Source: Escherichia coli
GTDB lineage: Bacteria > Pseudomonadota > Gammaproteobacteria > Enterobacterales > Enterobacteriaceae
Direction: 5' to 3' (one strand)
Length of the DNA stretch: 64,000 nt
Assembly (NCBI RefSeq): GCF_030384885.1
Contig: NZ_CP128615.1
Shown here: positions 3,193 to 27,672 of the stretch, one piece after another
Layout: each line of letters opens with the position of its first letter
How positions within the stretch are numbered: the first letter of the stretch is position 1
The notes under the pieces: generated by a model
Seen by the model: only the letters and a program-made list of their open reading frames with translations
Told to the model about the DNA's origin: nothing
The model's database searches: none
Made by a program: the position numbers and the translations under genes

Positions 3193-3292
3193 TGGATTTG
3201 CCCCTATATTTCCAGACACCTGTTATCACTTAATGGAGTGACCCCGAGCCCGTAGACAAATCTGCCCTATAGTTTGAGCATAGGAGGAGTCT

Positions 3293-5909: not shown

Positions 5910-7985
5910 TCAATTAACCCCAAGCGCCTTAAACACGGCATCGACGGGGTCTGCATAAAAGCTGATCTGGAATTTTGAGAACAACTCAGCAGGAACCGTT
6001 GGAATATCTGAGGCTGAGGCCATTGGGAGCAAAATACGCTTTGCGCCACTGTCCATAGCTAACTGAAGACTGCCTGCAAGATCTTGAACAGGATTGACGA
6101 CACCACCTAAAGTCATCTCACCCAAAACAACCATCTGCTCTTGAATCGGTCGGTTCATCAGAATTGAACAGAACGCAATTAATGCAGCGAGCGATGACTT
6201 TGTACTTGGCCCCGTATTGTGGAGCTCAACAACATGGAGGTGATACTCATGATCAGAAAACTTCGCCGACGCACTGATTCTATTCAGGTTACCTTTGAAA
6301 TAATCAAAGCCAACACGCACAGCTTCTTTCGCTGCGGTATTCGAACCAAGGCCAGACACTGAGTGTTTACCAGAACCAGCCATCATCTGGGTTTCATAGC
6401 GATATAACCCAAGCTGCCCAGTGCTTCCCTGAGTAACCAAGTGCACGACACCAGCGCGAGGTAAGCCCTCAGGAATTAGCTTGCTGCCACCTTGTTCCGG
6501 TACATTGATGAAGAATTCTTCTAATGAATCGTTATCGATGTAGCTAAAGTGCACATCAAAAAATTCCATTCCGCCAAGCTTTTTCAATTGCTCTTTGACT
6601 CTACGTCTAGTTTCCAGCGCATAGGTCAGGCAGGCTCTTACATCATCTTTTGTGTACTGTGCGTCGGGGTGTAGTAGCTTTAACAAGCCCGAAACAGTTC
6701 TGCGTACAGCAATTACATCACGCTGATTAAGGTTATTACCGAGTTTGAAGAACTTATCGATAGCATCCGCAAAACTTCTTTTGCGCATTTCACGCATGTA
6801 TTCAGCAAGATAGTCTGTGATTAATCCGTAACTATTGGTGAAAAACTCAGGACGCATCTTCGGTATTTCCCATCCAGGAATATAGGAATGGAAACGGTCA
6901 AAAAAAGCAGTGTCAATCATGGCTTCAGGAAAAGGTGCCAACAGATGACTGGTCTTCACCAGTGTCTCAACGCTTTGATTGATGTTACCGACGAATACCA
7001 TGGAAGCCTTCGCTTCGATTGAATCACGACCACGGGCAAAAGACCCTGACGCCATATAATCTTTCATTATTTGGACGCCGTCTTTGTCTTTAAAGTTAAT
7101 ACCCGCTACTTCATCAAAGGCGACAACATCCCACATTCCGACCAACCCAACTTGGCGCGAGCTCATGTTATAGAACAAGTTCGCCACAGTTGTTTGTCCG
7201 CCCGAGACAAGCAATGAGTTTGGTGAGCACTCCTTGTAGACATGGCTTTTACCTGTCCCTCTTGGTCCGAGCTCACAAACGTTGTAGTTGTTTTCAACGA
7301 ATGGGATCATACGAGTGATAAGATGCCATTTCACCCGATGCTCTAAGTTGGTTGGCTCCATACCCACGGAACGAAGCAACACATCCATCCACTGATCGGT
7401 ACTAAAATGTCTTCTGGTTGAAAACACCTCATCCATGTTCATGGACGGCATTTGTATCGGTTTTAAACTCATAATGGAGAAAGGTGATGTCTTCTGACCT
7501 TCCTCAAAGAAATACTGGACGGTAATAATGCACCAGATGCCGCCAGTTAATAATTTTTCGTTGTCTTGTACTATTTTGGTCGGTACAAGGGCATCCTTGA
7601 TACCCAGGTTCGACAACGCAGCTTCATAGACGTCTTTTTTCTGGTTGAGCTTAACGCTTACTTTGTCGATGATTTTAAACGTGCCGCGTTCACGGATCAG
7701 TGACTTCACTTTCTCCGCTTCATCTGGTCGGACATAGTTCTCAGCCAAGATTTTTTTTACATTATCAAGGCCTTGCATTACAACTTCGTCGTCATCGGAC
7801 GCACAATACATGCCTAGTAAATACTCAAGCACATAGACAGGGACGTTAGCGCCTTCTTTCAATTGCTTTGTCAGATCTTTTCGAACGACACGGCCTTTAA
7901 AATATTGGTTGAGCAATGCGTCTAAATCGGCGCTTTGCATCTGATTTTTTTCGTCTTTATGATCTTGTGAAAAATCAGTTGTCAT
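5910..7985 (-). CDS. brxL: BREX protein BrxL (Lon-like protease domain protein)
   Basis: 691 aa; last gene of a brxA-brxB-brxC-pglX-pglZ-brxL syntenic block; Walker-like GPRGTGKSH and C-terminal Lon-protease-like region. Confidence 0.85.
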   Translation of the reverse strand: MTTDFSQDHKDEKNQMQSADLDALLNQYFKGRVVRKDLTKQLKEGANVPVYVLEYLLGMYCASDDDEVVMQGLDNVKKILAENYVRPDEAEKVKSLIRERGTFKIIDKVSVKLNQKKDVYEAALSNLGIKDALVPTKIVQDNEKLLTGGIWCIITVQYFFEEGQKTSPFSIMSLKPIQMPSMNMDEVFSTRRHFSTDQWMDVLLRSVGMEPTNLEHRVKWHLITRMIPFVENNYNVCELGPRGTGKSHVYKECSPNSLLVSGGQTTVANLFYNMSSRQVGLVGMWDVVAFDEVAGINFKDKDGVQIMKDYMASGSFARGRDSIEAKASMVFVGNINQSVETLVKTSHLLAPFPEAMIDTAFFDRFHSYIPGWEIPKMRPEFFTNSYGLITDYLAEYMREMRKRSFADAIDKFFKLGNNLNQRDVIAVRRTVSGLLKLLHPDAQYTKDDVRACLTYALETRRRVKEQLKKLGGMEFFDVHFSYIDNDSLEEFFINVPEQGGSKLIPEGLPRAGVVHLVTQGSTGQLGLYRYETQMMAGSGKHSVSGLGSNTAAKEAVRVGFDYFKGNLNRISASAKFSDHEYHLHVVELHNTGPSTKSSLAALIAFCSILMNRPIQEQMVVLGEMTLGGVVNPVQDLAGSLQLAMDSGAKRILLPMASASDIPTVPAELFSKFQISFYADPVDAVFKALGVN

Positions 7986-8001
7986 GTTTCACCTCAGCGC
8001 C

Positions 8002-10674
8002 TTAGAAAAAATCATCTTGGAATGCCAAATCAATGGTTACCGCGTATTGGCTATAACGGGTTCTCATTTCCGCATTCTCAAGAACTAATGTGTATTGAGC
8101 GTTTCTATCGAACTGGGAGCCAATAAGCTTTAACCTAGCTTCGCGAGTACGTTCATCCATCACTTTACTCACGCTATCAAAGTTAATCGTTTCACGACTG
8201 GAGACTTCATTACCTTGTGCATCGACGATATAGACATCCAACAACCGTGCGACGAAACGCTCGCCTACAGGGTCTGTCTGAATAAATCTGACCTTGTCGA
8301 TATTGTTTACTAATTTGATGGGCTGAGTGGCTGCTACAACACCTACCGGTTGTTTCTCATGTTTTGCTGCTTGTTCTTTTTGTAGCTCTCGCACATGTAG
8401 TACCGGTACGCAGACTTCCTGTAGCATCGCTCCGCCATGCACAAACTTAGCACCACCAACGAAGTGGAAGCGTTGAGCCGCTTTTGGAAGCAGGAACTCG
8501 GTATCACTTGAGCCATGAGCCGTATCGTTAATTGAGCCTTTCCAACAGGCTTCATCTGAAGGCAAGTTATTACCAACGATATAACGTTTCTTGGCTTCTA
8601 TCGCTCCAGCAGGTTTGGTTTTCAACGAGGTTTTGTCAGCCGCTACAAGTGCTTTTTGTTGGAAGAGGAAGCCATGGTCAGCAGTGATCACAACTCGGCT
8701 GCCGTTTAGACGGTTGATGACCCGCCCAACGAGGTCTTTTAGCTCTTCAATGGCACTACGACAGGCTTCAAACGTTTTCTCTTCAGTTGCTGCCTTATCA
8801 CCAATCGCATCAATGGTATCGTGATAGATATAAACGACTTCTACGTCTCGAACCTTGTCACGCCCCTCCTGGTTACTCCAGCTCATCAGTTCCTTAGAAC
8901 TCACTGCCATACCACCTACTTTTTGTAGGATGGCGTTGCGGTTGTCTAGACCCTGTGAAGAAATACCATCCACATAAACAGCCGTGCCTTGCTCTGGCTG
9001 GTAACTGAGCGCCTTATGAGGCAATAATGCCGCCATCCCAAGTTGGGTATAACTCGGCAAAACGCCCAACTGCGTAGACACCTCAGCCTTAAATCGCTTC
9101 TCGTTGTTAATGATAGCGCCAAGCTCATTCGCAATTTCAAAACGCAGGGCATCAGAGATGATCACAAACACTCGTTTTGTCTGTTTCAGACTCAGTCGTG
9201 TGCGAACTTCTTTTTCATAGAAGTCATACTGGTGCGGTACGCCAGAAATCTGCCACTTTTCAAGTAATTTTTCATTGGCCAAGTGACGATCCCATGCAAG
9301 GCCAAGCTCATACAAGTACCAGTTGGTATAAATGCTTTCGACTTCGTCGTCGAGCTGACGCAGTATGTCTGCACCTTTACTCAATACAGAGTGCACATGC
9401 TCATTGAACAAACGGTAAGCCTGGTCAAAACGATAAATGTCTGTGGTATAGGCGTCGTACATTGCTTTCGCGTTATCAAAGTGGAACCCATCCACATAGC
9501 GATTTCGCAAGTGCATTAACTCTTCAGCGTTGCGGATAGCTTCATAAATTGCGAAGTATTCTTTGCGTGACAATGTCCAGTGGCTAGAAAGACGTCTTGA
9601 TAAGACCGTATCAAACTGAACCCGGTCTAGCGCTTTACTGCTATCGAGCAAATCACGAACTAAACCACGGATTATGGCCTGTTCCACAGCTTCGAACGTT
9701 TCGCATTCGATAAGCTCAACCGGATGGTACTGCCCAGCACGAGTCGAAATTTCCAACTGTTGGCTAAGCACCTTAGAGATGCTTTCGTAGTAAGCGGCGA
9801 AAGAGCGGCTGTCGCGCCAGCTCACCATAAACGCCAAGGCTGTCGCCCGGCCTGATGCGCTTTTTAGAACATTGTTAAGCAACCAATCGCGTTCAACACC
9901 TTCAATTTGGCTCCAGAATTCAGTACAGAATAATTTCAACACGAAGTCTGAGAAGGTTGGCTCTTCAACTGTATAGCCAAAACCCTCACTCAGATATGCC
10001 CAGAGTGAGGTCTCAAGATCAAACTTTCCTAGCTGGCTCCATAAAGGTTGACCAAGGCTTTCATCTTCGATATAAGCCGCATATTCGCGTAGTAACCCAA
10101 GCAGAATGTCCGACAAAGACGCAGAATCAGCTTTTACAACCACTGCCATCATCTTTCTGTCTAACGACAGTTCGTCTTCGTTCTCAGTCACCCACTTTTT
10201 TAAACCGGCTATGCGCTGTTTATTGGCAAAAAAGCTCTGGCGCTTACGAATGTGCGTGCGAAGCGCCATTTTCGGAATACCCAGCTCATTAAGCAGCATT
10301 GAGCTGTGATCAGCAAAAAACTGCTCGCTATACAAACGCACGTCTAGCAACCAATCGCGGTCAGGCTCTGGCTCAGCGCTTGGAAAATAGATAAGGAATT
10401 TAGCTTCACGCTCATCTACTTCAATGCGTTTTTTCACTGCCAATACAGACTCATTGCCCATATTGAGGATGGTCAAATCATTTGGAAGCACCCGTGCAGT
10501 TTTATCCGCCGATTTATCGTCTGTTTCTTTTGCAAGCCCTTCTTTTGCAATAGAGAGGGCGTTAGCTAAATGCTCAAGCTCTTCAGTAAAGCTTTGCTCT
10601 GGGTCGTACCAAAACACAATGCGGCTTTGTTCAAATTTGGCAGCAACGCCTTGTGCCAGTTCACTAATCTGCAT
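8002..10674 (-). CDS. pglZ: BREX protein PglZ (alkaline-phosphatase superfamily)
   Basis: 890 aa; position between pglX and brxL; size and composition match PglZ. Confidence 0.85.
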   Translation of the reverse strand: MQISELAQGVAAKFEQSRIVFWYDPEQSFTEELEHLANALSIAKEGLAKETDDKSADKTARVLPNDLTILNMGNESVLAVKKRIEVDEREAKFLIYFPSAEPEPDRDWLLDVRLYSEQFFADHSSMLLNELGIPKMALRTHIRKRQSFFANKQRIAGLKKWVTENEDELSLDRKMMAVVVKADSASLSDILLGLLREYAAYIEDESLGQPLWSQLGKFDLETSLWAYLSEGFGYTVEEPTFSDFVLKLFCTEFWSQIEGVERDWLLNNVLKSASGRATALAFMVSWRDSRSFAAYYESISKVLSQQLEISTRAGQYHPVELIECETFEAVEQAIIRGLVRDLLDSSKALDRVQFDTVLSRRLSSHWTLSRKEYFAIYEAIRNAEELMHLRNRYVDGFHFDNAKAMYDAYTTDIYRFDQAYRLFNEHVHSVLSKGADILRQLDDEVESIYTNWYLYELGLAWDRHLANEKLLEKWQISGVPHQYDFYEKEVRTRLSLKQTKRVFVIISDALRFEIANELGAIINNEKRFKAEVSTQLGVLPSYTQLGMAALLPHKALSYQPEQGTAVYVDGISSQGLDNRNAILQKVGGMAVSSKELMSWSNQEGRDKVRDVEVVYIYHDTIDAIGDKAATEEKTFEACRSAIEELKDLVGRVINRLNGSRVVITADHGFLFQQKALVAADKTSLKTKPAGAIEAKKRYIVGNNLPSDEACWKGSINDTAHGSSDTEFLLPKAAQRFHFVGGAKFVHGGAMLQEVCVPVLHVRELQKEQAAKHEKQPVGVVAATQPIKLVNNIDKVRFIQTDPVGERFVARLLDVYIVDAQGNEVSSRETINFDSVSKVMDERTREARLKLIGSQFDRNAQYTLVLENAEMRTRYSQYAVTIDLAFQDDFF

Positions 10675-13600
10675 TAGTTAACCTCCGGGGCCGAACCGGT
10701 AATGGCCTTAACATCAGCCAACAGATCACCAAACTTGCCGTAATTCACTTTCACGCCATCATCCAAATCCAGTGAAATACGCATATCAGCGTAGTGTTTT
10801 AGCTTGTCATCAAACTCGCGTAGTTCAACCTGTTTCTTGATTAAGGCATCCAACTCTTTCTTGAAGCGGTTCGCTTCACTGGTCGAGTCTGCCGTTTCAA
10901 TCTGCTTCTCAAGCTGCTCTGCATAAGCATCGTATTTGCCGAGTAACGGGGTGACATACTCGGTACGCATACGCGAAAGCGTGCCCTCGTTGTAACGGTG
11001 CAGGTAAACCAGGCACTCAAAAGCCTTCTGTTTGCCTGAGCTAAACAACCAATAAATAGGACGTTTTTTGTATGTCTTCAGGTGGTCTTTGTAGAATTGA
11101 GTCGATAAATAGCGGCGGATCGTCTCAAGAGCTGATTCTGATTTTTTGGGCTTTATGGCATTTAAGCACAGAGACTCTGCAACAAAATCGAGATTTTCTT
11201 GTAAGTGTTCTTCACCCCAAACAACTTGGACAAACTCGCGGAAACGATTGGTTGCGTCGTCCTTGAACCATTCTTGGTCGGTTAGGGGAATGATGCCATT
11301 TTCGTCGGCAGCAAAAGATTGATAAGCACCTTCGGCAACGAGTTTATCAAACCCATAATTACAAGCATGAGCGTAGACTAAGCCTTCACGATCAAGAGAG
11401 TAACGCCCCATCATGCAACCAATGGAGTAACTAATGAGTTCACAGGTTGTATCAGATTTTAACTTACTTAAATCAGTAGAATTTTCATATCGAAAAGCAG
11501 GGTTAGCAAATAATGATAGTGTTGAAATATCTATTGAAACCGGCACCGAAATTCCAAAATCATTGCATATTAAAGAATTAACTTCACTTTCCAAATTGGC
11601 TTGTTCATTAACTAGATTTAACTTCACTTCATTTAGAACCTGATAAGATTCAGCAATTTTGGCACGTTTTATTTTACACAGAGGCGAACATTCAAAGTTC
11701 CATGACGTTTCGTACATATCCCAATCAACCTTTGCGTTGGAAATTAAATCGCTCACCTTTTCAAACAATGCTTCTTTGTCAGCCTTATTGAAAATTGCCG
11801 GCAATGAGGCTATTTGACTCGTTTCATAGTTAAGCGTTGGCGAAATGATTTTTAACTGTTCCAGCACTACAGATGAGTTTAACTGAGCCAATAAGGCATA
11901 TTCTTCAATTCGAGAATTAAGAAATACTGATGCACCTGCAACGTCAAATATCGCTCCTTCAGGCTGCCATCTGAACGATGGAATTCCACTCGAAATTTTT
12001 GACCAAGTTACTGAGCTACGAAAATAAAATGCACCATTTTTCACAGTTCTAGTAGGAGACCCATACAAACTTTTAGCGTATGCAAATACCTCTTCACCTG
12101 CATTTTCCCAATTAATTACGTATTCCTGATTGCCATACCATTTTCTATATGAACCGCCTTTATTATATGGAAACCATTTGAATCCTGAGGATTCAGCTTC
12201 ATCTTTAGAACTAGAGTCATACATTGAGGTGTTTACTGGAACTTCATGCCATAGCCTTAAGAATCTATTATTATCACTTGTTTGACACCCAACTCTAGTT
12301 TTAGCAACTGACGATATTGGCGCGTCCATAAATGTATTTAATATTTCCTTGGCAACCCAATAAGCAATCGGACTCCCAGGAATCTTTTTGAAATCATCCT
12401 GAGCTGTCGCTGCAAATTCATTCTCTCTATTGAGCAATGCTTTTTGCTTTTCTTCTTCATTGCCATCTATCAGCCTATAAAAGGTAGGTTGATAATGATT
12501 GATGTGCTTATTTTGAATAATCCAGGCAGTAGTCTGTACAACCTCGCCACTAATCTGACTAAAAGCGCGTGCACCGAGGTGAGCCATAGTAATAAATGTA
12601 TGGTCTTCCAATAAATTGTTTCTTAGTTGCTCATAACTCGACAAGAACATCCACGATTGCATATTGATTTGAGCATTAAATCCATATTGAGAAAGCAATT
12701 TAAATGCTCGCTCCATAAAAATGGCAAACAAGTCTGATTTACTATTTGGGTATTGTTTCTTAGCAAACTCTTTCAAATCTGCATTCATTCCTTTTGCTCC
12801 CATATAGGGAGGATTAGCAATCACAGCATCGTAACGAATAGATAAAACCAAAGCCTGGTGAACAAACTCAATCAATTGCTTCGCTGCCAGCTTCTGCATT
12901 GAGTCGCCTGACTCTTGTAGCTCTACTAGCGTGCTCAGGAGCTCTTTTAGCTGTTCATGGTCATCGCTTGGTACATCAATCAATGAACCAAAGGTCTTGG
13001 CTTGAGTAAATCTTGCCAACGTTCGCTTCAGCAGTTGGTAGCGGTTGTCTGCATTGAACGAGCTTAAATCTTGCTCTTCGTCAGAGAACAGTCCTTGTGA
13101 TGTGCCGCTTTGCCAACTTCCCGATAGGTTGAGTGCTTTCCATAAGGTCGGCAGATCAATATGGTTACTTTCCTGCAATGACAGTACATTGAGTCGCACG
13201 TTACGGGTAAAAATACGCTTGTCGTCATCTCTCGCCATCATCATCAGGGCAAAGCCAGATAGCTGTGCTGCACGATCATCTATGTCCAAGCCGAAGAGGT
13301 TGTTCTCCAGGATCATCTTTGGAATGTCACGAGAGCGGAAACCACGTTCTTCGTAGATGGCTTTTAGTACGTTGTAAGCTTCAATCAGTATGTGGCCCGA
13401 GCCACAAGCGGGATCGAGTACTTTGATGGTTTCAGGTTCAATCGATTCTGGCGTAATAGCCTTTAGCTGTTGGTTAACTTCGTCAGATTGCTGCGCAGGC
13501 TCAATGTAGTATTCCATCTGGCTTTTAATGGCAGAGTCTGGGTAGGTTTGCAGCCATTGACGACCGACTGAGTTTTGTACCAGGTACTTTACAATCCAGT

Positions 13601-14342
13601 TAGGTGTAAATAGCTGAGTAGCGGCAGGAATGTCTTCACTTTTGACTACTTTTCCGATGACCTGATCTTTCTTTTCAGAAATGTAGAATTGGTAAAGCCA
13701 ACCAATCACTTCGACTTGTTGCCAGTCCTCTTCAGGGATGCCGTCTACCAATCCACGCAGAATGGAGTCGGTACGCATTAGGTTGTCTGGTAGCAGAAGC
13801 TCTGTTTCATCGTCCAATGCGTCAAATAAGAAAGGCATCGCTTCATGTAGCTTATGGCACTGGCCTAACAGCAGTTCACGATACAGCTCTTCGTCTTTGT
13901 TGCCCGCAAGCTTGAGTTCAACAATGCGAGCTCTATCTAATCCGAGTTCATCCGCAGCGTCTTGGGCATGGTCGATAATTTCAAAGCCTTTAGGGTTGTC
14001 TGGGTGCGACAAAACACGAAAACCGTGGCCTAGATAGTCATGGATTTCCATATAGCGAATAGCACACAGACGGTTGAACCAGGTATAAGCTACTTGTTCA
14101 ATAAGTTGTGCATACCCAAGTTTCTGGCTTCTGGCTACTATGCGTTTTCTGGGCTCGGCCAGTTTACCGTCAAAACTGTTACCAGCGATTTGAAGCACAG
14201 AACCTTGTAGATTCGCTTCTGCAATTTGTAGCTCGCCCTTTTTATTCGCGGTGATACCAAAGGTATTTAATCGTTTAGCTACCGCATCCATAAATTCGCG
14301 GCGCGCTTTTGGTGCGTATTTTTTAATGTTGTTCGTATTCAT
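10674..14342 (-). CDS. pglX: BREX N6-adenine DNA methyltransferase PglX
   Basis: 1222 aa; contains the amino-methyltransferase motif IV NPPY (VIANPPYMGAKGMN) and an AdoMet-binding-like LDPACGSGHIL motif. Confidence 0.9.
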   Translation of the reverse strand: MNTNNIKKYAPKARREFMDAVAKRLNTFGITANKKGELQIAEANLQGSVLQIAGNSFDGKLAEPRKRIVARSQKLGYAQLIEQVAYTWFNRLCAIRYMEIHDYLGHGFRVLSHPDNPKGFEIIDHAQDAADELGLDRARIVELKLAGNKDEELYRELLLGQCHKLHEAMPFLFDALDDETELLLPDNLMRTDSILRGLVDGIPEEDWQQVEVIGWLYQFYISEKKDQVIGKVVKSEDIPAATQLFTPNWIVKYLVQNSVGRQWLQTYPDSAIKSQMEYYIEPAQQSDEVNQQLKAITPESIEPETIKVLDPACGSGHILIEAYNVLKAIYEERGFRSRDIPKMILENNLFGLDIDDRAAQLSGFALMMMARDDDKRIFTRNVRLNVLSLQESNHIDLPTLWKALNLSGSWQSGTSQGLFSDEEQDLSSFNADNRYQLLKRTLARFTQAKTFGSLIDVPSDDHEQLKELLSTLVELQESGDSMQKLAAKQLIEFVHQALVLSIRYDAVIANPPYMGAKGMNADLKEFAKKQYPNSKSDLFAIFMERAFKLLSQYGFNAQINMQSWMFLSSYEQLRNNLLEDHTFITMAHLGARAFSQISGEVVQTTAWIIQNKHINHYQPTFYRLIDGNEEEKQKALLNRENEFAATAQDDFKKIPGSPIAYWVAKEILNTFMDAPISSVAKTRVGCQTSDNNRFLRLWHEVPVNTSMYDSSSKDEAESSGFKWFPYNKGGSYRKWYGNQEYVINWENAGEEVFAYAKSLYGSPTRTVKNGAFYFRSSVTWSKISSGIPSFRWQPEGAIFDVAGASVFLNSRIEEYALLAQLNSSVVLEQLKIISPTLNYETSQIASLPAIFNKADKEALFEKVSDLISNAKVDWDMYETSWNFECSPLCKIKRAKIAESYQVLNEVKLNLVNEQANLESEVNSLICNDFGISVPVSIDISTLSLFANPAFRYENSTDLSKLKSDTTCELISYSIGCMMGRYSLDREGLVYAHACNYGFDKLVAEGAYQSFAADENGIIPLTDQEWFKDDATNRFREFVQVVWGEEHLQENLDFVAESLCLNAIKPKKSESALETIRRYLSTQFYKDHLKTYKKRPIYWLFSSGKQKAFECLVYLHRYNEGTLSRMRTEYVTPLLGKYDAYAEQLEKQIETADSTSEANRFKKELDALIKKQVELREFDDKLKHYADMRISLDLDDGVKVNYGKFGDLLADVKAITGSAPEVN

Positions 14343-14357
14343 ATGATCTTGCGCCTC

Positions 14358-16121
14358 TTATTCTGTCTCTACGCTGTTTGCGGGTTGTAATGCGGTTCTA
14401 ATGCGGGCAAGCAGTGTTTCCTGACGCTCGCGGTAAAAGTCCATAAACTGGTTTAGTTGTTCAGGTAATGATGTTATGGCTTGCGATTGCAGATGTGCTT
14501 GTCTTGCATTCACATCAGGCCACTGCTGCGCATACCATTCATGGGGCATTTTTTGCCGCTTCTGGTTGTTGATTGTCCCTTCCAACAGTTGAAGGTTTGG
14601 CAGCTTGTTAGATGCCTCGATGAGTTCATCTAGCTGTTCAGCTGGGACACCAACTTTTGCAAGCTTGTTACGCGTAAACAAACCTTTGGGGTAAATGTGG
14701 TCCACATGAAAGTGTCGTGAAAAATCGAATCCTGGGAACAACAAAGTCAACAAGGCAAAGGTACGCGGATTACCATAATCCAACTGCGCTAGTTCACTAA
14801 TTTCCTCTGGGTCAAAGCGCAACGATTTACCACGCTGTTGCATGGTCGCTTCAATTTTCGCTAGCGGGAAACCCGTATCACCCGATTGTTTAATGTCTGA
14901 GCGAAGCATAGTAAGCAGGGTATCCAAACCACTTCCCCAGATGCCTGACGCTTTCAACAACGACCTAATGAGCCAGTTTCTGATGCATTCTCTATCGACC
15001 GCATATTCAACCCTAGAAAGGTAGCTTGCCGTTAACTTTCGGTGGTGCAGGTAATAGGCTAACGGGAGGATGGCACTTGTTGCTCTGAGGTTTTGTGCAT
15101 TAAAACCAAAACTTGCCAGCAACTGCATTGAGAGCAATAACGCATCACGAATTGGCGTCCAGTTCTTTTCGAGAATCGCCATATTTTCCTTGTTAAAGTT
15201 CTCAACCTTAAAGCCCACGCTACCGATGTCAGAGAGCATTAAGCCTGCTTTTAAAACGAGATCTTTTGATACGTTGAATCCATCACCAACACGGTTCATC
15301 TCATCCACTAAGGCATGAATTTCTTCACGGGCATCTAACGAGCTCCACTGCGCTACGGCTATTGAAAGTAGTAAGTCTGAGTAGGACAAAGTAGTGCCGC
15401 CGCTATTCATGCGGATAAAGATATTCAGAACACGTTCAAGGCTCTGATCACTTTCTTCGTAAAACGAAATCTTATCTTTGTCATGGATAGTTCGATACAA
15501 GTGACGAAGAGTTGAGCGAGCCTCTTTGCGTTGCTCCGAGCTCAACCTAGCATCATCAGCAACTTCATCGATAAGTGCATCTTCTTCCTCTTCCATGATC
15601 CGGCCTACACGGAACCAGTATTGTTCAGATGCATCCAAAGAGGCTTTATCGTCGGTTAGGAACTCAAAGTCATACATCGACCCAGTTTCTAAGTCGGGCT
15701 GGCTTAACAGATTTAAGTGAAGCCTGCGCACTGGGAAGGCGTCATCATTGCTCCACCATTTACCTGTCAGCTTCCACGCAAATGAGCCGCGTAGGCCGAT
15801 GTTCAAAGCGGTAATCCGCTGCTGTCCATCTAGGACGGCAATGAACTCACGCTCTGGTAACTGAGTGACATTTTCACAATGGTAGTTATCTCGCTCATGG
15901 TAATGCTGCATGAACTGATAAAACTGATAGCTATGCCGGTTCTCTGGTTTTATCTTCCAGAATAGAAAGGTCCCAAACGGGTAACCTTGCAACAGGCTAT
16001 CAAATAGACGACAGATCTGTTCTGGTCGCCATACAAACTCTCGCTGGATGGCCGGTAACAGGTATTCCTGCTCAGCAACCTTGTCGAGTAATGATCTTAT
16101 TGTTCCACCCGCTTGATACAT
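14358..16121 (-). CDS. brxU: GmrSD-family type IV restriction endonuclease (DUF262 plus DUF1524), BrxU-like, embedded in the BREX locus
   Basis: 587 aa; N-terminal DUF262 motifs (LPAIQREFVW, DGQQR), C-terminal DUF1524 His-Me finger motif (HVDHIYPK); sits between brxC and pglX. Confidence 0.75.
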   Translation of the reverse strand: MYQAGGTIRSLLDKVAEQEYLLPAIQREFVWRPEQICRLFDSLLQGYPFGTFLFWKIKPENRHSYQFYQFMQHYHERDNYHCENVTQLPEREFIAVLDGQQRITALNIGLRGSFAWKLTGKWWSNDDAFPVRRLHLNLLSQPDLETGSMYDFEFLTDDKASLDASEQYWFRVGRIMEEEEDALIDEVADDARLSSEQRKEARSTLRHLYRTIHDKDKISFYEESDQSLERVLNIFIRMNSGGTTLSYSDLLLSIAVAQWSSLDAREEIHALVDEMNRVGDGFNVSKDLVLKAGLMLSDIGSVGFKVENFNKENMAILEKNWTPIRDALLLSMQLLASFGFNAQNLRATSAILPLAYYLHHRKLTASYLSRVEYAVDRECIRNWLIRSLLKASGIWGSGLDTLLTMLRSDIKQSGDTGFPLAKIEATMQQRGKSLRFDPEEISELAQLDYGNPRTFALLTLLFPGFDFSRHFHVDHIYPKGLFTRNKLAKVGVPAEQLDELIEASNKLPNLQLLEGTINNQKRQKMPHEWYAQQWPDVNARQAHLQSQAITSLPEQLNQFMDFYRERQETLLARIRTALQPANSVETE

Positions 16122-16137
16122 AGTTATCCGTTGCCTC

Positions 16138-19100
16138 TTACTTAATTCTTACTCGGTCGCCAGCTTTGACCGCAGCAATCAGCTGCTCTCTTAAAGCGGC
16201 AAGATAGGCATCAACTTCGGCTTCACTTTCAATGAATCCGGTTGTTACTGACTTAGCCATGGCATCGGTTGAGTTAATCGTTACGGTACGTTTTGCAACC
16301 GGCTGTGGCTGCACTGGTTCAGAGGCTGGCTCAGGTGCTGGAGCTGCTTTACCGGCTTTCGCTGCTTCCTCTTCGCGTGTCTGCTGTTCGAGTTCACGAC
16401 GTCTTTGCTCAGCTTCAGCTTTTTTGCGTTGATCTTCGATAAAGCCATTCAGCAACTCATAGGCTTCGTCCTCGTAACCTTCCGCTTCAGTTTGCTCACT
16501 GATAATTTGTGGTATTGAAGAGGTCGCTTCAATACGCTGTCTGCACATTTGTAACGGGCGCAGTGCTTGGTTCTGTAATTCAGACGGTGCATGAGCTTCA
16601 GCTAGCGCTTCTTTTACACGTCCGATGCGCAGATCAACACGCTCTAAGGCATGAGTGCGTTTTTCTTCAACCAATGTTGAGTTAATTTTTGCCACCTGCT
16701 CGATAAGCGGATTAATGTGGCGCAGCTGCTCATACGGCGAGGGCATATTGTAAATGCGTTCTAATTCAGTGAGCGCTTTTAATGCTTCACTGTCTTTTTC
16801 TAACGCAGGTCTATTGGCCTTAAACTTCTCGTTCAATGCGCCAGCAAGGGCTTGCCAAGTTTGAAATTGGCTATTGTAGAAGTCATCAAGATCCTCAAAG
16901 TCCTCAGCAAACTCTTCAAGGGCATCAGCGTTTTCTAAGAATCGGGTGATAAGAGCGAAGCTTGAAGTTTGCTCAAGAATACCCGCGACCAATGCAAGAC
17001 CATCGTCAATTTGAGATTTACCTGGGAAATGGCCTGTCTGTGACTTGGTTCTGAATGATTTAAGCTCTTCATTCCAAGCCAGTAATTCATCGCGCACTAA
17101 TTCGTAGAGCTCCTTTTCACCAGAGCCGGTAAAGGTTTTTGAAAAGATCTCTTTAACAAGACCAGCAGCCTTTTTGATTTGGCGCTCGTCATGTTGCCTG
17201 ATTTTATGTACACGGATCTCACCGCGTTTACGCACGCTGGTAAACGGCTCGTAAGCTTTTTTCAACGCCAGATCTGTGCCCTGGGTACTAAAAGATAACT
17301 TTCCAGCCAAGCCCAGCCTTGCAGTGAGCAATAAGATTTCATTGTCTGGCCAGCCATACGGGCGCTTGCCGAAGTGGGCAACGATGTCACGTAAGTAAAC
17401 AGGCTCATTACGCTCGACTTTTAGCGTTACGTACTGCTCAACCTCACGCGTAGCTTCTGGGTTACATTCATCCGCTTGAAGATCCAGTCCAATCTGAGCA
17501 ATATCATCAGCAACAAGTACGGCCTGTAGCTCACGCAAAACTTCACCAGGCGTCGCCTTGAGCATGTTCAATTTAGCGAAGGTGTTTTCGATAACGTATT
17601 TGTATGCTTCTTCGACGATGGCACTTGGCGTTGCTGATTTCTTCGGTAGTTTTGTGCCGATAGCGTAAACGTCAGCCTCTGCAAACAAAGCTTCAAAATC
17701 CGTTCTTAAGCGTTTTTCACGCTCAATATTTTCCATCTGCTTTTCGCGGAGAAGGTGTTCTTGCTCTGGTCGCTGTCCTGAATTTTGTTTTAAGAATCGG
17801 TCAGTTTTTATAAAGGTTGTCAGGTCATCCCAAAGACGTTTATGTTCGCCCAGCTTGACGAGCACGCACCCATCAGCCTCAAGCGTATGATTGATGCAGG
17901 CTTGATCGTGGGAGTAATTTTCAAAGTGCGAATCCAAAGGTGAAATGACTTTAATGACTAGATCTTCCAGCGTGGTGCCATCTTTTGGATGACCATTGCA
18001 AAAACGGCTCACCGCAAAGTCTTGCTTATTAATCGGGTATCGATAGGCACGATTACCTTTCAAAATACCGTCAAATACGATTGCTGAAAGCTTGTTAGAG
18101 ACCTCTGACATTTCAACGTCAGTGTGGCGGATCTCGTTTTCAATCTCTTTTTCTTCGTTGGTCAGGAAGATAAATTCATCACCATTACGCGCAATCAGCA
18201 ATTGGCGTTCAAGACGATTCAAGCTCTCTTCAATTTGTTTACGCAGCGCAATTTTATCTGCATCGATTCGATCAATTGACAGCGTCACAAGGTTGTCTAG
18301 TGTGCTTTTGACAACGTCCACATAACGGATCAAGAAAAGAGTTTTTAGAATCTTGCCATCGAATTCTGTTAAGGAATCCAACTCACAGGCTTGGTCAATC
18401 GTTCGCTTAACCGCTGGCTCCAAAAAGCTTTCAATCGGTGCATAGAAACTGTAAAACGGGATTAACACATCAAGGCCAGAGTCCTTCATCTGTTTTGCAG
18501 CTGATTGGAAAGCATCAAGTAATGAACGCTCACCCATGGCTAAGTGCTTACCCGTCGCGCCTTTTGTTCGAATTGACTCAAACACTTTTTGAACCAGCGT
18601 GTAGTGGTAAGGCACAAACGGATAGTTGTCCACGAAAGACGGAGCGTCGGTGTAGCCCTTTAGAGACGCAGTTGTCGTTTTATCAAATGTCAGCTGGTTA
18701 CGAAGAATGTCGCCCTTTTCAGCAAACACATCGATGAGGTGTGTACGAGCTTCTTCCGTTTTGGACAACAAACGCTTTTGAATAACTTCCGAGGTATTCG
18801 AGCTCGACAGCTGCAAGCGGGTACTAAAACGCCCTTGAATTTTAGAGAAGTCCTCGCCATCGCGCTTATCCATACCACCAATGGCAGCATCAATGTCTGC
18901 CTGAGAGGTAACAACGACCCAAGCTCTGCCACCACAATATGTGCCAAGATCTTCAGTAATGGTCTGAAGCTTCAACATCATTTGTGTGTTCTTACCGATA
19001 AACTGACCGACTTCATCGACTAAGAAAAGAAGGTTACGATCTCCAGTTCGATCTAAGTATTCATTAACCCACTTACAGAAGTTTCGGATATCTAGCGGGA

Positions 19101-19815
19101 AATTGTTTTCAACCTGTTCAACCCACGCTTTGGCAGACTCTAATGATTGCTCACTGGCATGAGCGAGTGCTTCTGAAAGTTCGTCTCGATAGAAGTCATA
19201 GGCGTCACGCTCCTTTTCCCAAGTTGATTGAGTCAACTCAGCAAATTTGTCCTTGAAAGACATGTATTGATTACGCTTATCAAGCTCGCGTTCTAAATGC
19301 GCAATGTGAGGAAAATCAGCGCAGTATCCTACACGCTCATTAAAGACTTTGAGGAAGACCTTAAGAATGGCATTTTCTCGGTCATCCGTATTGGCTCGTG
19401 AATCGATGTTAAAAAGAATAACATCAGTGTCTTTGGTAACAGCGTTTTGGATATCGGCCAACAGCATGGCATCGTTGATTTTGTCTTTAAAAAACTCAAA
19501 TGCTTGACGGCCTTGGCCATCCTTTTCGACAGACTTATTTTCGAGGAGGTAAGACAAAATTTTCAGGAAGTGAGACTTACCCGAACCAAAGAAGCCAGAG
19601 ATCCACACACCAATTTTTCCTGACATTGATGCGCCACTTTGCGTCACAGATGGAACGTAAGCCTCAAAGAAAGCGCGAAAATGTCGATCTAGCTCTCGGG
19701 TTACAACATACTCATCAAGTTCGACATACACACTGTCATTGTCTTTCTGTTCCGCTTTAACAACGCCGTTAATATCACGCGTCAACTTCTTGGAAAAAAT
19801 CTGTTCAATTTTCAT
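16138..19815 (-). CDS. brxC: BREX ATPase BrxC/PglY
   Basis: 1225 aa; Walker A GFFGSGKSHFLK near N-terminus; position after brxB. Confidence 0.85.
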   Translation of the reverse strand: MKIEQIFSKKLTRDINGVVKAEQKDNDSVYVELDEYVVTRELDRHFRAFFEAYVPSVTQSGASMSGKIGVWISGFFGSGKSHFLKILSYLLENKSVEKDGQGRQAFEFFKDKINDAMLLADIQNAVTKDTDVILFNIDSRANTDDRENAILKVFLKVFNERVGYCADFPHIAHLERELDKRNQYMSFKDKFAELTQSTWEKERDAYDFYRDELSEALAHASEQSLESAKAWVEQVENNFPLDIRNFCKWVNEYLDRTGDRNLLFLVDEVGQFIGKNTQMMLKLQTITEDLGTYCGGRAWVVVTSQADIDAAIGGMDKRDGEDFSKIQGRFSTRLQLSSSNTSEVIQKRLLSKTEEARTHLIDVFAEKGDILRNQLTFDKTTTASLKGYTDAPSFVDNYPFVPYHYTLVQKVFESIRTKGATGKHLAMGERSLLDAFQSAAKQMKDSGLDVLIPFYSFYAPIESFLEPAVKRTIDQACELDSLTEFDGKILKTLFLIRYVDVVKSTLDNLVTLSIDRIDADKIALRKQIEESLNRLERQLLIARNGDEFIFLTNEEKEIENEIRHTDVEMSEVSNKLSAIVFDGILKGNRAYRYPINKQDFAVSRFCNGHPKDGTTLEDLVIKVISPLDSHFENYSHDQACINHTLEADGCVLVKLGEHKRLWDDLTTFIKTDRFLKQNSGQRPEQEHLLREKQMENIEREKRLRTDFEALFAEADVYAIGTKLPKKSATPSAIVEEAYKYVIENTFAKLNMLKATPGEVLRELQAVLVADDIAQIGLDLQADECNPEATREVEQYVTLKVERNEPVYLRDIVAHFGKRPYGWPDNEILLLTARLGLAGKLSFSTQGTDLALKKAYEPFTSVRKRGEIRVHKIRQHDERQIKKAAGLVKEIFSKTFTGSGEKELYELVRDELLAWNEELKSFRTKSQTGHFPGKSQIDDGLALVAGILEQTSSFALITRFLENADALEEFAEDFEDLDDFYNSQFQTWQALAGALNEKFKANRPALEKDSEALKALTELERIYNMPSPYEQLRHINPLIEQVAKINSTLVEEKRTHALERVDLRIGRVKEALAEAHAPSELQNQALRPLQMCRQRIEATSSIPQIISEQTEAEGYEDEAYELLNGFIEDQRKKAEAEQRRRELEQQTREEEAAKAGKAAPAPEPASEPVQPQPVAKRTVTINSTDAMAKSVTTGFIESEAEVDAYLAALREQLIAAVKAGDRVRIK

Positions 19816-19833
19816 TCGGGAGGCTCCCTGCTC

Positions 19834-20427
19834 TTAATTTTTTTTACCGTCTTCAGGCACAAGCTTGAAGGCGCGATAGTAGTTTTTAGATTCGATCATG
19901 CCGAAAGGATGCAAATCCCTTCCGCTATATTCACCCGGATAGAAAAGCACTAATGGCGTGCTACCCATAACGTCTTGCAGAGCACTAAGTAACTCATGTC
20001 CTCGGATAAGAGGCCACGCACTGCCTAAGCCTGACAGCAACACAAACTCAAGTTCTGATGGCTTATATTTGTCCGCGATATACCTTGCCACTTTCTCTTG
20101 GCTCAGAGGCCCGGCTAGTGTTTTTCGAAGGCCATCAACACCGACTTGCAATTCACGCTGGCAAGCTCGGTCGAAAAGGCCTCGCTCCTCAAGCATATCT
20201 ATCAAGACTTCAAAAATATTGAGATGGACAAAGCGGTAACCACGCTTGTTGAGTTTTTCGTCAACGTGCTTAATGTGCTCTCGTACAAGCAGTTCATACT
20301 TGGCTGGATAGTCAAATACCCAAAATCCAATTTCATTGCCCAAGCCATCGTTTTTCAAAAACTTAGGGCTTTCAATTCGTTCCAGTATCAGATCAAGCCT
20401 GGTCTGAAGAGCCTTCATATTGTGCAC
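19834..20427 (-). CDS. brxB: BREX protein BrxB (DUF1788)
   Basis: 197 aa; overlaps brxA by 13 bp; size and position as in type 1 BREX. Confidence 0.8.
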   Translation of the reverse strand: MHNMKALQTRLDLILERIESPKFLKNDGLGNEIGFWVFDYPAKYELLVREHIKHVDEKLNKRGYRFVHLNIFEVLIDMLEERGLFDRACQRELQVGVDGLRKTLAGPLSQEKVARYIADKYKPSELEFVLLSGLGSAWPLIRGHELLSALQDVMGSTPLVLFYPGEYSGRDLHPFGMIESKNYYRAFKLVPEDGKKN

Positions 20428-21014
20428 TCCATTACCTCAATCAAATCTTCCCGGCCCAGACGAACTAACCAGTCTTTAACTTCTGGCATTAGGTAAACAG
20501 GTTGTATTTTCTTTGTCCTGCTATCACTCAGGTAGCCACTATCAACCAGTGCCTTAATTGCGTTGTTACCCATTTTTTTGACAGTTGAGTCAGAAAAACC
20601 GCCAAGCTCAGCATATGCCCGCACTCTCGTGTCATAAAACTCAGACCATGCATCAGCGGTTAAAGAGGGTTTATAGGTGCGACGAGCTTCGGCTAAGGTA
20701 AGTCGCATAAAATAAGCGACAACCGGAGAATGAATGAGTAATGACATCATCAGCATTTGGACATAGGCACGTTCACTCGCGGCTAAAAGATCAGTCATAA
20801 ACTCATCACCCAGGCCTTCAATACGCCAACGGATTGTTCTGGCATAACGAATAGCCGTCTGACCGGATTTTTTCTGAAGAACATTTTGCTCAACGATCAG
20901 CGACTTCCACTCATCTTCTGGAAGTTTTTTCAATAGCGATTCTGCGATTATTCTAGATTCAGTTATCAATAAACTGCCTCCGATAAGATCGCCTAAATAT
21001 TCTTTTATATTCAT
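20415..21014 (-). CDS. brxA: BREX protein BrxA (DUF1819)
   Basis: 199 aa; first structural gene of the BREX block. Confidence 0.8.
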   Translation of the reverse strand: MNIKEYLGDLIGGSLLITESRIIAESLLKKLPEDEWKSLIVEQNVLQKKSGQTAIRYARTIRWRIEGLGDEFMTDLLAASERAYVQMLMMSLLIHSPVVAYFMRLTLAEARRTYKPSLTADAWSEFYDTRVRAYAELGGFSDSTVKKMGNNAIKALVDSGYLSDSRTKKIQPVYLMPEVKDWLVRLGREDLIEVMECTI

Positions 21015-21023
21015 AAATTCATC

Positions 21024-21950
21024 TCACGATTCGCTATATCCAGGAGCGAGTGCAGCATTGTCAACGCCGTATAGTGCTTCTGGATTTTTAAGTGCTAAAT
21101 GGAACTCTCGCCCATTGCTCTTACAATTCTTTGAACAATCGATATTCCATAAACGCAGTAAATATCCAGCGAACGCAGCTCTTATCTCTACACGCAACCT
21201 ATTGTTTTCCATTGCGTAGTCCATCGATACAGCTTCTGGATGTGCTAGTTTTGGATGAGGTATCAGCTCTAGCTCAACGATTCGGTTCCATTGCTTATCC
21301 CACTGAAGAGTCTCAACTTCGTCGTTAACCTCATCCTCTAACAACTCAACTTCACTTATTCTGGTTAAAACAAAATCCCTAAATTCTCTAAGCTTTCTAT
21401 CGAATGCTCGGACATGCCATCTCAAGCCATTGTCAATCAGGGTATGAGGAACTATTTGCCTGCTCCCATGACCACTCGACAATGAGGTGTACTCAATATT
21501 AATCACAGCGCGCTTATGTATGGCTTCACTAATAGCCGCTACAACTTCCAATTTCGGCTTATTGAGATGGAATGGTGCTTCACAAGCCATAGGTGGCCTG
21601 GCCTTGCCAAGAAAGCCATCACCGAACCCTTGGCTTATCGTCGCAAGAGTTCGAACAACGTCATAATCAAACAACGGCTGGAATGCGCTCGTCTTCAAGT
21701 GCACTCTGCGCTTTTCGTCATACATAACGTTGTTAGGAGCCAACTCTTTGTACCGCGCAAAATCTTGTGTTGCCACAGACGGCGCTACGCTAAATCGCTC
21801 GGTTAAATAACTACGCCCAGCTTCACCTTTAAATAACAAAGTGAAATCAATATGAGCGAGTCGTTCTCTCTGTGCTTGGCTAAGCTCTTCAAGTCCAGTG
21901 TTGTCTTGCACTGTCAGCCTCTCAATCCATCTGGGACAAGCCCTAATCAT
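21024..21950 (-). CDS. brxR: WYL-domain transcriptional regulator BrxR (wHTH-WYL)
   Basis: 308 aa; N-terminal winged-HTH-like segment and WYL-like core (QIVPHTLIDNGLRWHVRAFD); directly upstream of brxA. True start may be an internal Met. Confidence 0.7.
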   Translation of the reverse strand: MIRACPRWIERLTVQDNTGLEELSQAQRERLAHIDFTLLFKGEAGRSYLTERFSVAPSVATQDFARYKELAPNNVMYDEKRRVHLKTSAFQPLFDYDVVRTLATISQGFGDGFLGKARPPMACEAPFHLNKPKLEVVAAISEAIHKRAVINIEYTSLSSGHGSRQIVPHTLIDNGLRWHVRAFDRKLREFRDFVLTRISEVELLEDEVNDEVETLQWDKQWNRIVELELIPHPKLAHPEAVSMDYAMENNRLRVEIRAAFAGYLLRLWNIDCSKNCKSNGREFHLALKNPEALYGVDNAALAPGYSES

Positions 21951-22269
21951 TTAAAACTAGGAAGCCATCGATTGAATGCCATCAAGCAACCTACTTTTTT
22001 TCATTAGGTATCATAGTATCAACAAGTCGTCTTGTTGGCTATAAAAATTGGCTTGACGTTGTTCGAATGTTTCTTTTCTGGCCTTGATAGAAGCTCACGC
22101 TGGAATGCCAACTGACGCAATTCATTCTCTCGAACACGCCTAGCAACTTCTGCCTGGGCTGGTAGCTGATCTTGACCCTCCATCTCCGAACAGCTTTTGT
22201 ATCTTAAGTTAACGATGTCCGCTGCCGCCGGTATTCCCTCGGGGAGTGATATCCCAGCGCGCTGTGCGG

Positions 22270-22545
22270 GTGGCTTCCATTTCCATCAGATGTCCTTCCT
22301 GCTCCGCTACTGAAGGCGTGGTGCGTAACGGCAAAAGCACTGCCGGACATCAGCGCTATCTCTGCTCTCACTGCCGTAAAACATGGCAACTACAGTTCAC
22401 TTACACCGCCTCTCAGCCCGGTACGCACCAGAAAATCATTGATATGGCCATGAATGGCGTTGGATGCCGGGCAACCGCCCGCATTATGGGCGTTGGCCTC
22501 AACACGATTTTACGTCACTTAAAAAACTCAGACCGCAGTCGGTAA
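22270..22545 (+). CDS. insA: IS1 InsA
   Basis: [43 protein letters not shown]...; track ORF 22246 start extends beyond the IS1 fragment and is not used. Confidence 0.85.
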
Positions 22546-22967
22546 CCTCACGCATACAACCGGGCAGTGACGTCATTGTTTGCGCGGAAATGGACGAACA
22601 GTGGGGTTATGTCGGCGCTAAATCACGCCAGCGCTGGTTGTTTTACGCGTATGACAGGATACGGAGGACGGTTGTGGCGCACGTATTCGGTGAACGCACG
22701 TTGTCCACGCTGGAGCGTCTTCTGGGCCTGCTGTCGGCCTTTGAGGTCGTGGTATGGATGACGGATGGCTGGCCGCTTTATGAATCACGCCTGAAGGGAG
22801 AACTGCACGTTATCAGCAAGCGATATAAGCAGCGCATTGAGCGGCATAACCTGAATCTGAGGCAGCATCTGTCAAGGCTGGGCAGGAAGTCACTGTCGTT
22901 CTCAAAATCGGTGGCGCTGCATGACAAAGTCATCGGGCATTATCTGAACATAAAACACTATCAGTAA
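22464..22967 (+). CDS. insB: IS1 InsB (expressed as InsAB' by frameshifting)
   Basis: 167 aa [27 protein letters not shown]... Confidence 0.85.
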
Positions 22968-23174
22968 GTTGGAGTCATTACCTTCTTTGCCGCCGGACAT
23001 TGTCCGGCGCAACACCAAACCGGTCTGGCGGGCTGAGCCAATCCCGCAGGCAAATTCAGCCCTTACCGGATGGCTCAGCCCCCTACTCATTGGAATTGGA
23101 TATTCAACTTTCAGGGGCTACTGCGCCAGACTTCAGTCTTTAAAGTGATTGACTTAGCGCCTGGCACACTCAAT

Positions 23175-23486
23175 TTATTTAGGTAGCGGGCCTAATTGCA
23201 CCCCATCAGGATAATACTTCCAGCCATCGCGAATTTTGACATTTTCATCCCACGGAAGTTTGTATTCGCCATTGGCAAGATCGCGCACCCAGGTCAGGTA
23301 ATTCTCGCGTTCGCCTCCCGGTTTGCCGACATAGCCCCGGCAGCCAAGGTTGAAAATATTGTTTTCCAACGCCCAGTTTTCACGCGCTTTATCCACCAGG
23401 CGCGGGAACAGCTCTGCGGTAACAATTTCCCATGGGTTGCGGTGCCCCTGCTGAATGACGTTACCGTCATAATTGCAGACCGTACC
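23175..23486 (-). pseudogene. C-terminal fragment of an unidentified gene, truncated by IS903
   Basis: Open frame runs from the IS903 boundary (23486) to stop at 23175; no N-terminus. Confidence 0.3.
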
Positions 23487-24543
23487 GGCTTTGTTGAATA
23501 AATCGAACTTTTGCTGAGTTGAAGGATCAGATCACGCATCCTCCCGACAACACAGACCATTCCGTGGCAAAGCAAAAGTTCAGAATCACCAACTGGTCCA
23601 CCTACAACAAAGCTCTCATCAACCGTGGCTCCCTCACTTTCTGGCTGGATGATGGGGCGATTCAGGCCTGGTATGAGTCGGCAACGCCTTCATCACGGGG
23701 AAGGCCCCAGCGCTATTCTGACCTTGCCATCACGACTGTGCTGGTCATTAAACGCGTATTCAGGCTGACCCTGCGCGCTGCGCAGGGCTTTATTGATTCC
23801 ATTTTTACACTGATGAATGTTCCGTTGCGCTGCCCGGATTACAGCTGTGTCAGCAGGCGGGCAAAGTCGGTTAACGTCAGTTTCAAAACGTTCACCCGGG
23901 GTGAAATCGCGCATCTGGTGATTGATTCCACCGGGCTGAAGGTCTTTGGTGAAGGCGAGTGGAAAGTCAAAAAGCATGGCCAGGAACGCCGTCGTATATG
24001 GCGAAAGTTGCATCTGGCAGTTGACAGCAACACACATGAAATCATCTGTGCAGACCTGTCGCTGAACAATGTGACGGACTCAGAAGCCTTCCCGGGTCTT
24101 ATCCGGCAGACTCACAGAAAAATCAGGGCAGCATCGGCAGACGGCGCTTACGACACCCGGCTCTGTCACGATGAACTGCGGCGTAAGAAAATCAGCGCGC
24201 TTATCCCTCCCCGAAAAGGTGCGGGTTACTGGCCCGGTGAATATGCAGACCGTAACCGTGCAGTGGCTAATCAGCGAATGACCGGGAGTAATGCGCGGTG
24301 GAAATGGACAACAGATTACAACCGTCGCTCGATAGCGGAAACGGCGATGTACCGGGTAAAACAGCTGTTCGGGGGTTCACTGACGCTGCGTGACTACGAT
24401 GGTCAGGTTGCGGAGGCTATGGCCCTGGTACGAGCGCTGAACAAAATGACGAAAGCAGGTATGCCTGAAAGCGTGCGTATTGCCTGAAAACACAACCCGC
24501 TACGGGGGAGACTTACCCGAAATCTGATTTATTCAACAAAGCC
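23487..24543 (+). mobile_element. IS903 (IS5 family), intact 1057-bp copy, no target-site duplication
   Basis: Terminal inverted repeats GGCTTTGTTGAATAAATC at both ends; flanking 9-mers differ (gaccgtacc vs agatggaat). Confidence 0.9.
23519..24487 (+). CDS. IS903 transposase
   Basis: 322 aa [45 protein letters not shown]... Confidence 0.9.
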
Positions 24544-24625
24544 AGATGGAATAGCCCCGCTCGGTGATTTGGCGGACAGCTTCTTCCTTAAATTCAGGGG
24601 TAAAACGTGGTGTGCCCATAGACTA
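24544..24625 (-). mobile_element. 82-bp remnant of an IS3-family element (orfA start region)
   Basis: Minus strand encodes MGTPRFTPEFKEEAVRQITERGYSI, near-identical to the orfA start at 3293; cut on both sides by IS903 and the IS407-like element. Confidence 0.5.
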
Positions 24626-25208: not shown

Positions 25209-25457
25209 TGATGCGGACTACGACGTGCGTTTGGTCCAGGACTGCTGCTACGACCCGGATCGGGATGCCCACGAAGCTCTGTTGCGTTCCGGGTTCGGCG
25301 GACGTGTACAGGTCGTGTAATTTTCGGGCCTCGCATGATCGCGGCCATAGCCGCAGGTGGATTGGTGCGAGGCAGGGCCAGTCCAAGTCAGGGTGCGGTC
25401 ATCGCGGCGCCTGCAACTCTCAAAAACCCATCGCCGTAGCGGAGGTCTTGTAATCGC

Positions 25458-26342: not shown

Positions 26343-26373
26343 CCCGCATGGCATAGGCCTATCGTTTCCACGA

Positions 26374-27573: not shown

Positions 27574-27619
27574 GTCTGGCCTCCGGACCAGCCTCCGCTG
27601 GTCCGATTGAACGCGCGGA

Positions 27620-27672
27620 TTCTTTATCACTGATAAGTTGGTGGACATATTATGTTTATCAGTGATAAAGTG
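27620..27672. promoter_or_regulatory. tetA/tetR divergent promoter with two tet operator palindromes
   Basis: TTTATCACTGATAAG and TTTATCAGTGATAAAG palindromes in the tetA-tetR intergenic region. Confidence 0.6.

Follow-up and report, generated by a model that had tools for sequence, protein, structure and literature searches.

A BrxR autorepressor module of the pEFER type heads the BREX island in the window, the whole 64,000-nucleotide stretch of Escherichia coli DNA analysed here, and the insertion sequence (IS) scar found upstream of it lies outside the control region. Because both IS events fall outside this conserved region, regulation of the island is most likely native, a reading that can be held with high confidence. 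The regulator gene, its promoter and its operator are a near-identical copy of a system that is already known, that of pEFER from Escherichia fergusonii (Picton et al., 2022; PMC9122601; PDB 7QFZ). By analogy with pEFER, the promoter would be active and would be bound and repressed by BrxR.

The BREX island and its BrxR regulator

The regulated island occupies 5910..21014 on the minus strand and consists of brxA (20415-21014), brxB, brxC, brxU, pglX, pglZ and brxL (5910-7985), all of which are intact open reading frames with full-length PADLOC matches. The six core genes of type I BREX (brxA, brxB, brxC, pglX, pglZ as well as brxL) are all present, with E values of 5.6e-71 down to 0, and brxU is the DUF262 gene between brxC and pglX; the island is a complete type I BREX plus BrxU phage-defence island. 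Directly upstream of these genes and co-directional with them lies brxR, giving the order brxR-brxA-brxB-brxC-brxU-pglX-pglZ-brxL that is shared with pEFER. The proposal of the first-pass annotation that a WYL gene heads the BREX block is borne out by this arrangement of same-strand genes, and the assignment of that gene to the BrxR-type WYL regulators also holds, since its product carries a WYL domain (PF13280, E 2.3e-12 in Pfam) and aligns end to end, at ~97% identity (E 1e-193), with the studied repressor BrxR of pEFER.

At nine positions the protein departs from BrxR(Efer), all of them outside residues 1-54 of the winged helix-turn-helix (wHTH) domain. The identical residues include R17, the DNA-contacting arginine on which binding and repression by BrxR(Efer) depend (PMC9122601), which is found in MQDNTGLEELSQAQRER at position 17 counted from GTG 21911. 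A 98%-identical protein carries PF26109 (WHD_BrxR), PF13280 and PF26107 (BrxR_CTD), and the architecture of N-terminal winged HTH, WYL domain and C-terminal dimerisation domain is that of the brxR product. BrxR(Acin) from Acinetobacter (PDB 7T8K) and CapW (PDB 7TB5, 7TB6) belong to the same wHTH-WYL-CTD family (E 4e-23 to 1.5e-33), and in their operators, too, inverted repeats separated by 5 bp lie close to the promoter. However, both proteins are distant in sequence, their operator sequences differ, and CapW controls CBASS rather than BREX.

The longest version of the brxR reading frame runs from ATG 21950 to 21024 on the minus strand (21024-21950, 308 aa), and this ATG is the start used by RefSeq and by the first-pass annotation. 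The true start is most likely GTG 21911, which gives a coding sequence of 295 aa (21024..21911, minus strand) that matches PDB 7QFZ over its full length at 97% identity. Several features point to the GTG: residue 1 of 7QFZ aligns with residue 14 of the long version, a relative from Moellerella has an in-frame stop after the upstream ATG, GTG occurs at the aligned start position in five of ten relatives, and a putative ribosome-binding site, GAGAGG (21918..21923, minus strand), can be read in the sequence 6 nt before GTG 21911.

Promoter and operators of brxR

Coordinates of the two systems are converted by window = 34832 - pEFER. In pEFER, strong promoter activity was found upstream of brxR and was repressed by BrxR; the -10 element predicted by BPROM lies within pEFER 12801-12819, equivalent to window 22031-22013 (PMC9122601). 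In this stretch of the window, the candidate extended -10 of the brxR promoter (PbrxR) is TGaTACTAT (22013-22021, minus strand). A candidate -35 element, TAGCCA (22036-22041, minus strand), lies 17 nt upstream of the -10 at a position that is conserved in relatives, and the 17-nt spacer between the two is made up of 22022-22035 plus the TGa (minus strand). PbrxR scores 8/12 against the consensus, and the threshold of the scan tool is 9/12, so that an empty result is expected at this site. A scan of 21800-23200 for consensus promoters and terminators found nothing, which says little about PbrxR for that reason. An Rfam scan of 20900-23200 returned only a sub-threshold match to M23 at 22985-23035, which was taken to be due to chance.

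The operator starts at the base right after the -10. In pEFER, R-BOX1 is an inverted repeat of 11-5-11 layout (12820-12846, equivalent to window 22012-21986) that BrxR binds with a Kd of 13 nM in EMSA (PMC9122601). The homologous R-BOX1 of the window (21986-22012, minus strand) has the same 11-5-11 layout at the same place, with IR1 GATACCTAATG (22012-22002), the spacer AAAAA and IR2 AAGTAGGTTGC (21996-21986); its arms agree with each other at 7 of 11 positions, and it lies between the promoter and the gene. A second site, R-BOX2, was described at pEFER 13612-13638, equivalent to window 21220-21194 (PMC9122601). The window has an identical R-BOX2 (21194-21220, minus strand), ACTACGCAATG-gaaaa-CAATAGGTTGC, inside brxR and upstream of brxA, and the IR2 core TAGGTTGC was found in it by pattern search. 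A single repeat was enough for repression in pEFER (PMC9122601).

Upstream DNA was gathered from plasmids and metagenomic contigs that encode BrxR homologues of 60-91% identity, and the promoter-operator layout recurs in relatives of 66-91% identity from unrelated contigs. An operator core, ACCT-N13-AGGT, is present at fixed spacing in 8 of 12 lineages (the window, pEFER and six others). A TAnnAT hexamer lies 2-3 nt upstream of the core in all eight core-bearing lineages, and the TG of the extended -10 in six of them. TAGCCA is found 17 nt further up in the window, pEFER, L009, L094 and L098, and TAGCAA in L097. Since the core occurs twice in the 64-kb window against 0.56 occurrences expected by chance, its fixed position weighs more than its count. 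This conserved footprint, as read from the alignments, supports the assignment of promoter and operator and the notion of classic repression by occlusion. A scan of genome contigs with BrxR gave only relatives of ~50% identity, whose upstream DNA could not be aligned. A survey of palindromes in these relatives found varied inverted repeats 60-110 bp upstream and no shared motif, which lends weak support to the position of the operator.

The window and pEFER differ by 30 substitutions over 22166-21024. Eight of these are upstream of the GTG start, and three of the eight fall in the 27-bp R-BOX1, at 22010, 22004 and 21996 (three of its 22 repeat positions); two of the three are common to relatives that lack the scar. 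The closest scar-free relative, pHS08-175-1, differs from the window at three positions in 1143 bp, one of which is the T at 22010, position 3 of IR1. This T is specific to the present lineage, four relatives having G and pEFER having A, and it alters the sequence next to the -10 from TATGAG to TATGAT, a 5/6 match to the -10 consensus. These differences might suggest that point changes in the operator, and not the scar, have re-tuned the system, the change from G to T weakening IR1, creating TATGAT and thereby raising basal expression. The concentration of the changes, with three of eight upstream differences from pEFER in R-BOX1 and one of only three from pHS08-175-1 at IR1 position 3, is in favour of this idea. 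However, position 22010 seems to be weakly constrained, because it takes G, A or T among close relatives; the core of IR2, the higher-affinity half-site, is kept, and one repeat sufficed in pEFER; and TATGAT lies 3 nt further downstream, where its -35 partner is poor. Re-tuning by operator changes is considered very unlikely.

The spacer of PbrxR is filled by an 18-bp palindrome, CAACAAG-acga-CTTGTTG (22020..22037, minus strand; read from the sequence). Paired changes preserve its symmetry in Moellerella (CAATAAG...CTTATTG) and in the SXT/R391 element R997 (ACAAA-ataa-TTTGT), L095 retains 6/7 positions, and the palindrome is absent in L094, L097, L098 and L099. Another regulator, so far undescribed, might bind there, or BrxR itself in a second binding mode, which would place ICE-derived cassettes under two-input control. 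A related proposal is that plasmids of the present kind are natural variants without brxS and brxT, showing that the reported requirement for these genes only reflects the position of PbrxR inside the 3' end of brxT. This combined reading is unlikely. As a separate observation, the published EMSA probe begins in the middle of the palindrome (22020-22037).

The preferred reading remains a pEFER-type autorepressor module. Under it, a weak sigma-70 promoter (TAGCCA, 17-nt spacer, TGaTACTAT) would drive brxR and, through brxR, the BREX and BrxU genes. A BrxR dimer bound to the inverted repeats of R-BOX1 would cover the predicted transcription start, near 22006, and so block RNA polymerase, and R-BOX2 would damp the weaker promoter that precedes brxA. 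Analogy with the family suggests that the repressor would be released when the WYL domain senses a ligand. The authors of the pEFER study could not obtain brxR knockouts and suspected that derepression is toxic (PMC9122601); this, together with the persistence of intact islands behind the junction described below, suggests that repression is working.

The IS junction upstream of the promoter

Homology to all nine scar-free relatives that were compared stops abruptly at 22166|22167 (megablast against plasmids and E. coli genomes, and alignments). The match to pEFER, which is 97.5% identical over the shared stretch, likewise ends at 22166. From 22167, the window carries 107 bp from the end of an IS3-family element (22167..22273, minus strand), whose inverted repeat begins TGATCTTGACCC at 22167 and whose transposase stop lies at 22204. 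L006 and L007 contain intact copies whose end matches the fragment at 98-100%, and the same terminus abuts three other flanking contexts in other plasmids. The copy in the window is incomplete: of the two TG...CA inverted repeats and the orfA and orfB between them that make up a full element, it retains one inverted repeat and the last 19 transposase codons, and no name was assigned to the element by PGAP. Because the homology ends at 22166 and the terminus begins at 22167, the break in the island flank was made by the IS3-family end, and the IS1 was joined to the IS3-family fragment rather than to the island. The break is 216 bp from the annotated ATG and 255 bp from the likely start at GTG 21911. 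The interval 21951-22269, which had been described as native upstream region cut by IS1 at about 320 bp, is thus a composite that is cut by the IS3-family end at 216 bp.

The 5'-truncated IS1 itself was recognised correctly. It lies at 22270..22982 (plus strand) and corresponds to IS1 nt 56-768 by BLAST, with the insA and insB reading frames and an intact right end; its identity is 92% to an IS1 reference sequence and 93.8% to the deposited IS1 in L006. The first 55 bp, including the left inverted repeat and the element's own promoter, are missing, so that it is not a complete mobile copy; it is an immobile remnant. It overlaps the IS3-family fragment by the 4 bp GTGG at 22270-22273, and such a shared sequence fits a deletion or an illegitimate joint rather than IS1 transposition. 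The same joint occurs with another flank in pTHO-004-1 of K. pneumoniae (L008 2501-3030; 99.8% over 530 bp), which indicates that it is older than its position beside BREX or was recombined into it. In the likely sequence of events, an IS3-family element would have inserted in brxT and truncated the upstream DNA, and a later deletion would have brought the last 107 bp of this element up against an IS1 whose left end was missing.

The structure is no assembly artefact: the 1.9-kb stretch across the junction recurs at 99.7-100% identity in nine plasmid records of PLSDB and six E. coli records of RefSeq, two sets that overlap. This stretch is identical to that of several plasmids, including p1658/97. 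The whole island with the junction has a 100% match in the E. coli plasmids NZ_CP024857.1 and NZ_CP080127.1, and plasmids of K. pneumoniae and K. michiganensis also carry junction and complete island, with an identity of 97% and a diverged segment. A chimeric reading frame of 54 aa crosses the junction (22019-22183, minus strand): its ATG lies in the IS3-family inverted repeat, and from there it reads, without a shift of frame, into the final 49 codons of brxT. Some RefSeq copies seem to list it as a hypothetical protein. No Pfam domain was detected in BrxT, in this chimeric frame or in the IS3-family tail.

Other IS debris and resistance-type genes were noted in the window. A second, nearly full-length IS1 (46596-47359, minus strand) is 95% identical to the truncated copy, and an isolated 72-bp left end of IS1 at 34301-34372 is a 100% match to the IS1 reference sequence. 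On the right flank (23519-27648), ORF translations examined by eye indicate an IS903 (23519-24487), an IS3-family orfA (24697-24960), an EamA-like permease ORF and a tetA-like efflux ORF (26374-27648). This flank looks like a multidrug-resistance mosaic adjoining the defence island.

None of the mapped control elements (22041-21986) has been lost; they lie 125-180 bp inside the junction at 22166. The equivalent of the pEFER reporter fragment R8 (12682-12941; PMC9122601), window 22150-21891, is wholly inside retained DNA; the activity of R8 is presented in a figure, and no statement of it was found in the text of either version of the paper. The first-pass annotation had supposed that the native promoter or operator might have been changed by the junction; the intact elements do not support this. 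By homology with pEFER, promoter and operator lie well inside the retained DNA with their repeats present, which is one half of what that annotation named as counting against its supposition, the other half being equal expression. In the comparison with IS-free loci, the upstream flank has indeed been replaced from 22167, and promoter, R-BOX1 and R-BOX2 have been retained.

A changed expression level of the operon, relative to scar-free homologues, could still follow from the new context, either through lost sequences or through read-through from the IS remnants. The flank is truly different from 22167 on, with the loss of brxS and the 5' part of brxT, and effects from 125 bp beyond the -35 are conceivable; the lost upstream DNA may have acted through read-through transcription, DNA bending or nucleoid proteins. 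However, besides the intact control elements, the pEFER regions upstream of brxS have no promoter activity (PMC9122601), and nothing upstream of ~22077 is shared with the Moellerella cassette. The remnants themselves also offer little: the IS1 is directed away from brxR and lacks its promoter-bearing end, the IS3-family fragment is only the 3' transposase end with a TTGACC motif that faces into the element and away from brxR, and no consensus-like outward promoter was seen on either strand of the remnants in the scan of 21800-23200, which argues against strong ones. An effect of the junction on expression is thus very unlikely, and the preferred reading, native regulation of the pEFER type, implies from the sequence comparison that expression is probably unchanged relative to scar-free relatives. 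As with promoters that insertion sequences create or disrupt, such as the outward or hybrid ones of IS1 and the IS3 family, the 5' flank of an operon here borders on IS ends. The present arrangement differs from them in that the native promoter is intact and 125 bp away, and the nearest IS1 end is an internal breakpoint rather than an inverted repeat.

Backbone DNA flanking the cassette

The retained DNA next to the junction includes a 148-nt 3' remnant of brxT (22019..22166, minus strand; aligned to pEFER and other relatives), which contains PbrxR. The promoter lies within the last codons of brxT, whose stop codon (22019-22021) overlaps the extended -10. In comparison with pEFER, which keeps brxT and a brxS IS remnant upstream, the window has lost brxS and the 5' part of brxT and has the IS3-family end and truncated IS1 from 22167.

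The origin of the two lost genes can be traced. In pEFER, brxS is the remnant of a rearranged IS3-family transposase. BrxT of pEFER has 105 aa and shares 77% identity with the ORF in front of the WYL gene of R997, the two diverging after about residue 70. In R997 this BrxT-like ORF follows a 3'-5' exonuclease gene, and an E. coli chromosomal element has the same two genes ahead of brxR. Every hotspot 5 region of the SXT ICEs carries a WYL gene (LeGault et al., bioRxiv 10.1101/2020.12.16.423150). By these comparisons, brxT is an ICE-backbone ORF that flanks the cassette. The exonuclease and BrxT-like ORF flank the WYL regulator in R997, which carries type I restriction-modification cargo, whereas the cassette of the window is BREX, lies on a plasmid and has 148 nt of the backbone ORF left. 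The WYL gene of R997 also has an R-BOX-like repeat (L092 ~3190-3250), GATACTTAATA-aaatt-AATTAGGTTGA, so that this type of operator is common to cassettes with different defence cargo.

The outer limit of the cassette can be placed by the Moellerella relative, which shares sequence only from ~22077 downward. Because its homology starts only there, the DNA at the junction belongs to the flanking ICE backbone and not to the control region of the cassette, and the IS3-family insertion at 22166 lies roughly 40-90 bp outside the latter. Other breakpoints cluster at 22075-22088. In about 48 Klebsiella plasmids without BREX, the part of brxT that remains is the 5' one, up to the equivalent of 22082, and a 38-bp inverted repeat of the Tn3 family directly follows it (L091 3001-3130); L090 is cut at 22088 beside a fragment of a Tn3-family transposase. 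The plasmid pCUVET18-121.2, also cut at 22088, was considered as a natural deletion showing that such a loss is tolerated, and was set aside on the ground that its own BREX island is truncated after brxA.

The regulator, promoter and operator have already been dissected in pEFER, and what lies beside them on this multidrug-resistance plasmid is ordinary debris of insertion sequences; as it stands, the finding matters little. Two points of modest practical value concern brxS and brxT. Later papers state that both genes are required for BREX activity or methylation, and the 2021 paper that is cited for this requirement calls the function of brxS and brxT unclear. The apparent requirement may arise because constructs without brxT also lose PbrxR. 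Taken as an IS remnant and ICE-backbone DNA rather than as defence genes, brxS and brxT would allow a simple reading of the published statements, and the plasmids that carry the junction, as natural variants without brxS and the 5' part of brxT, could be used to test that reading.
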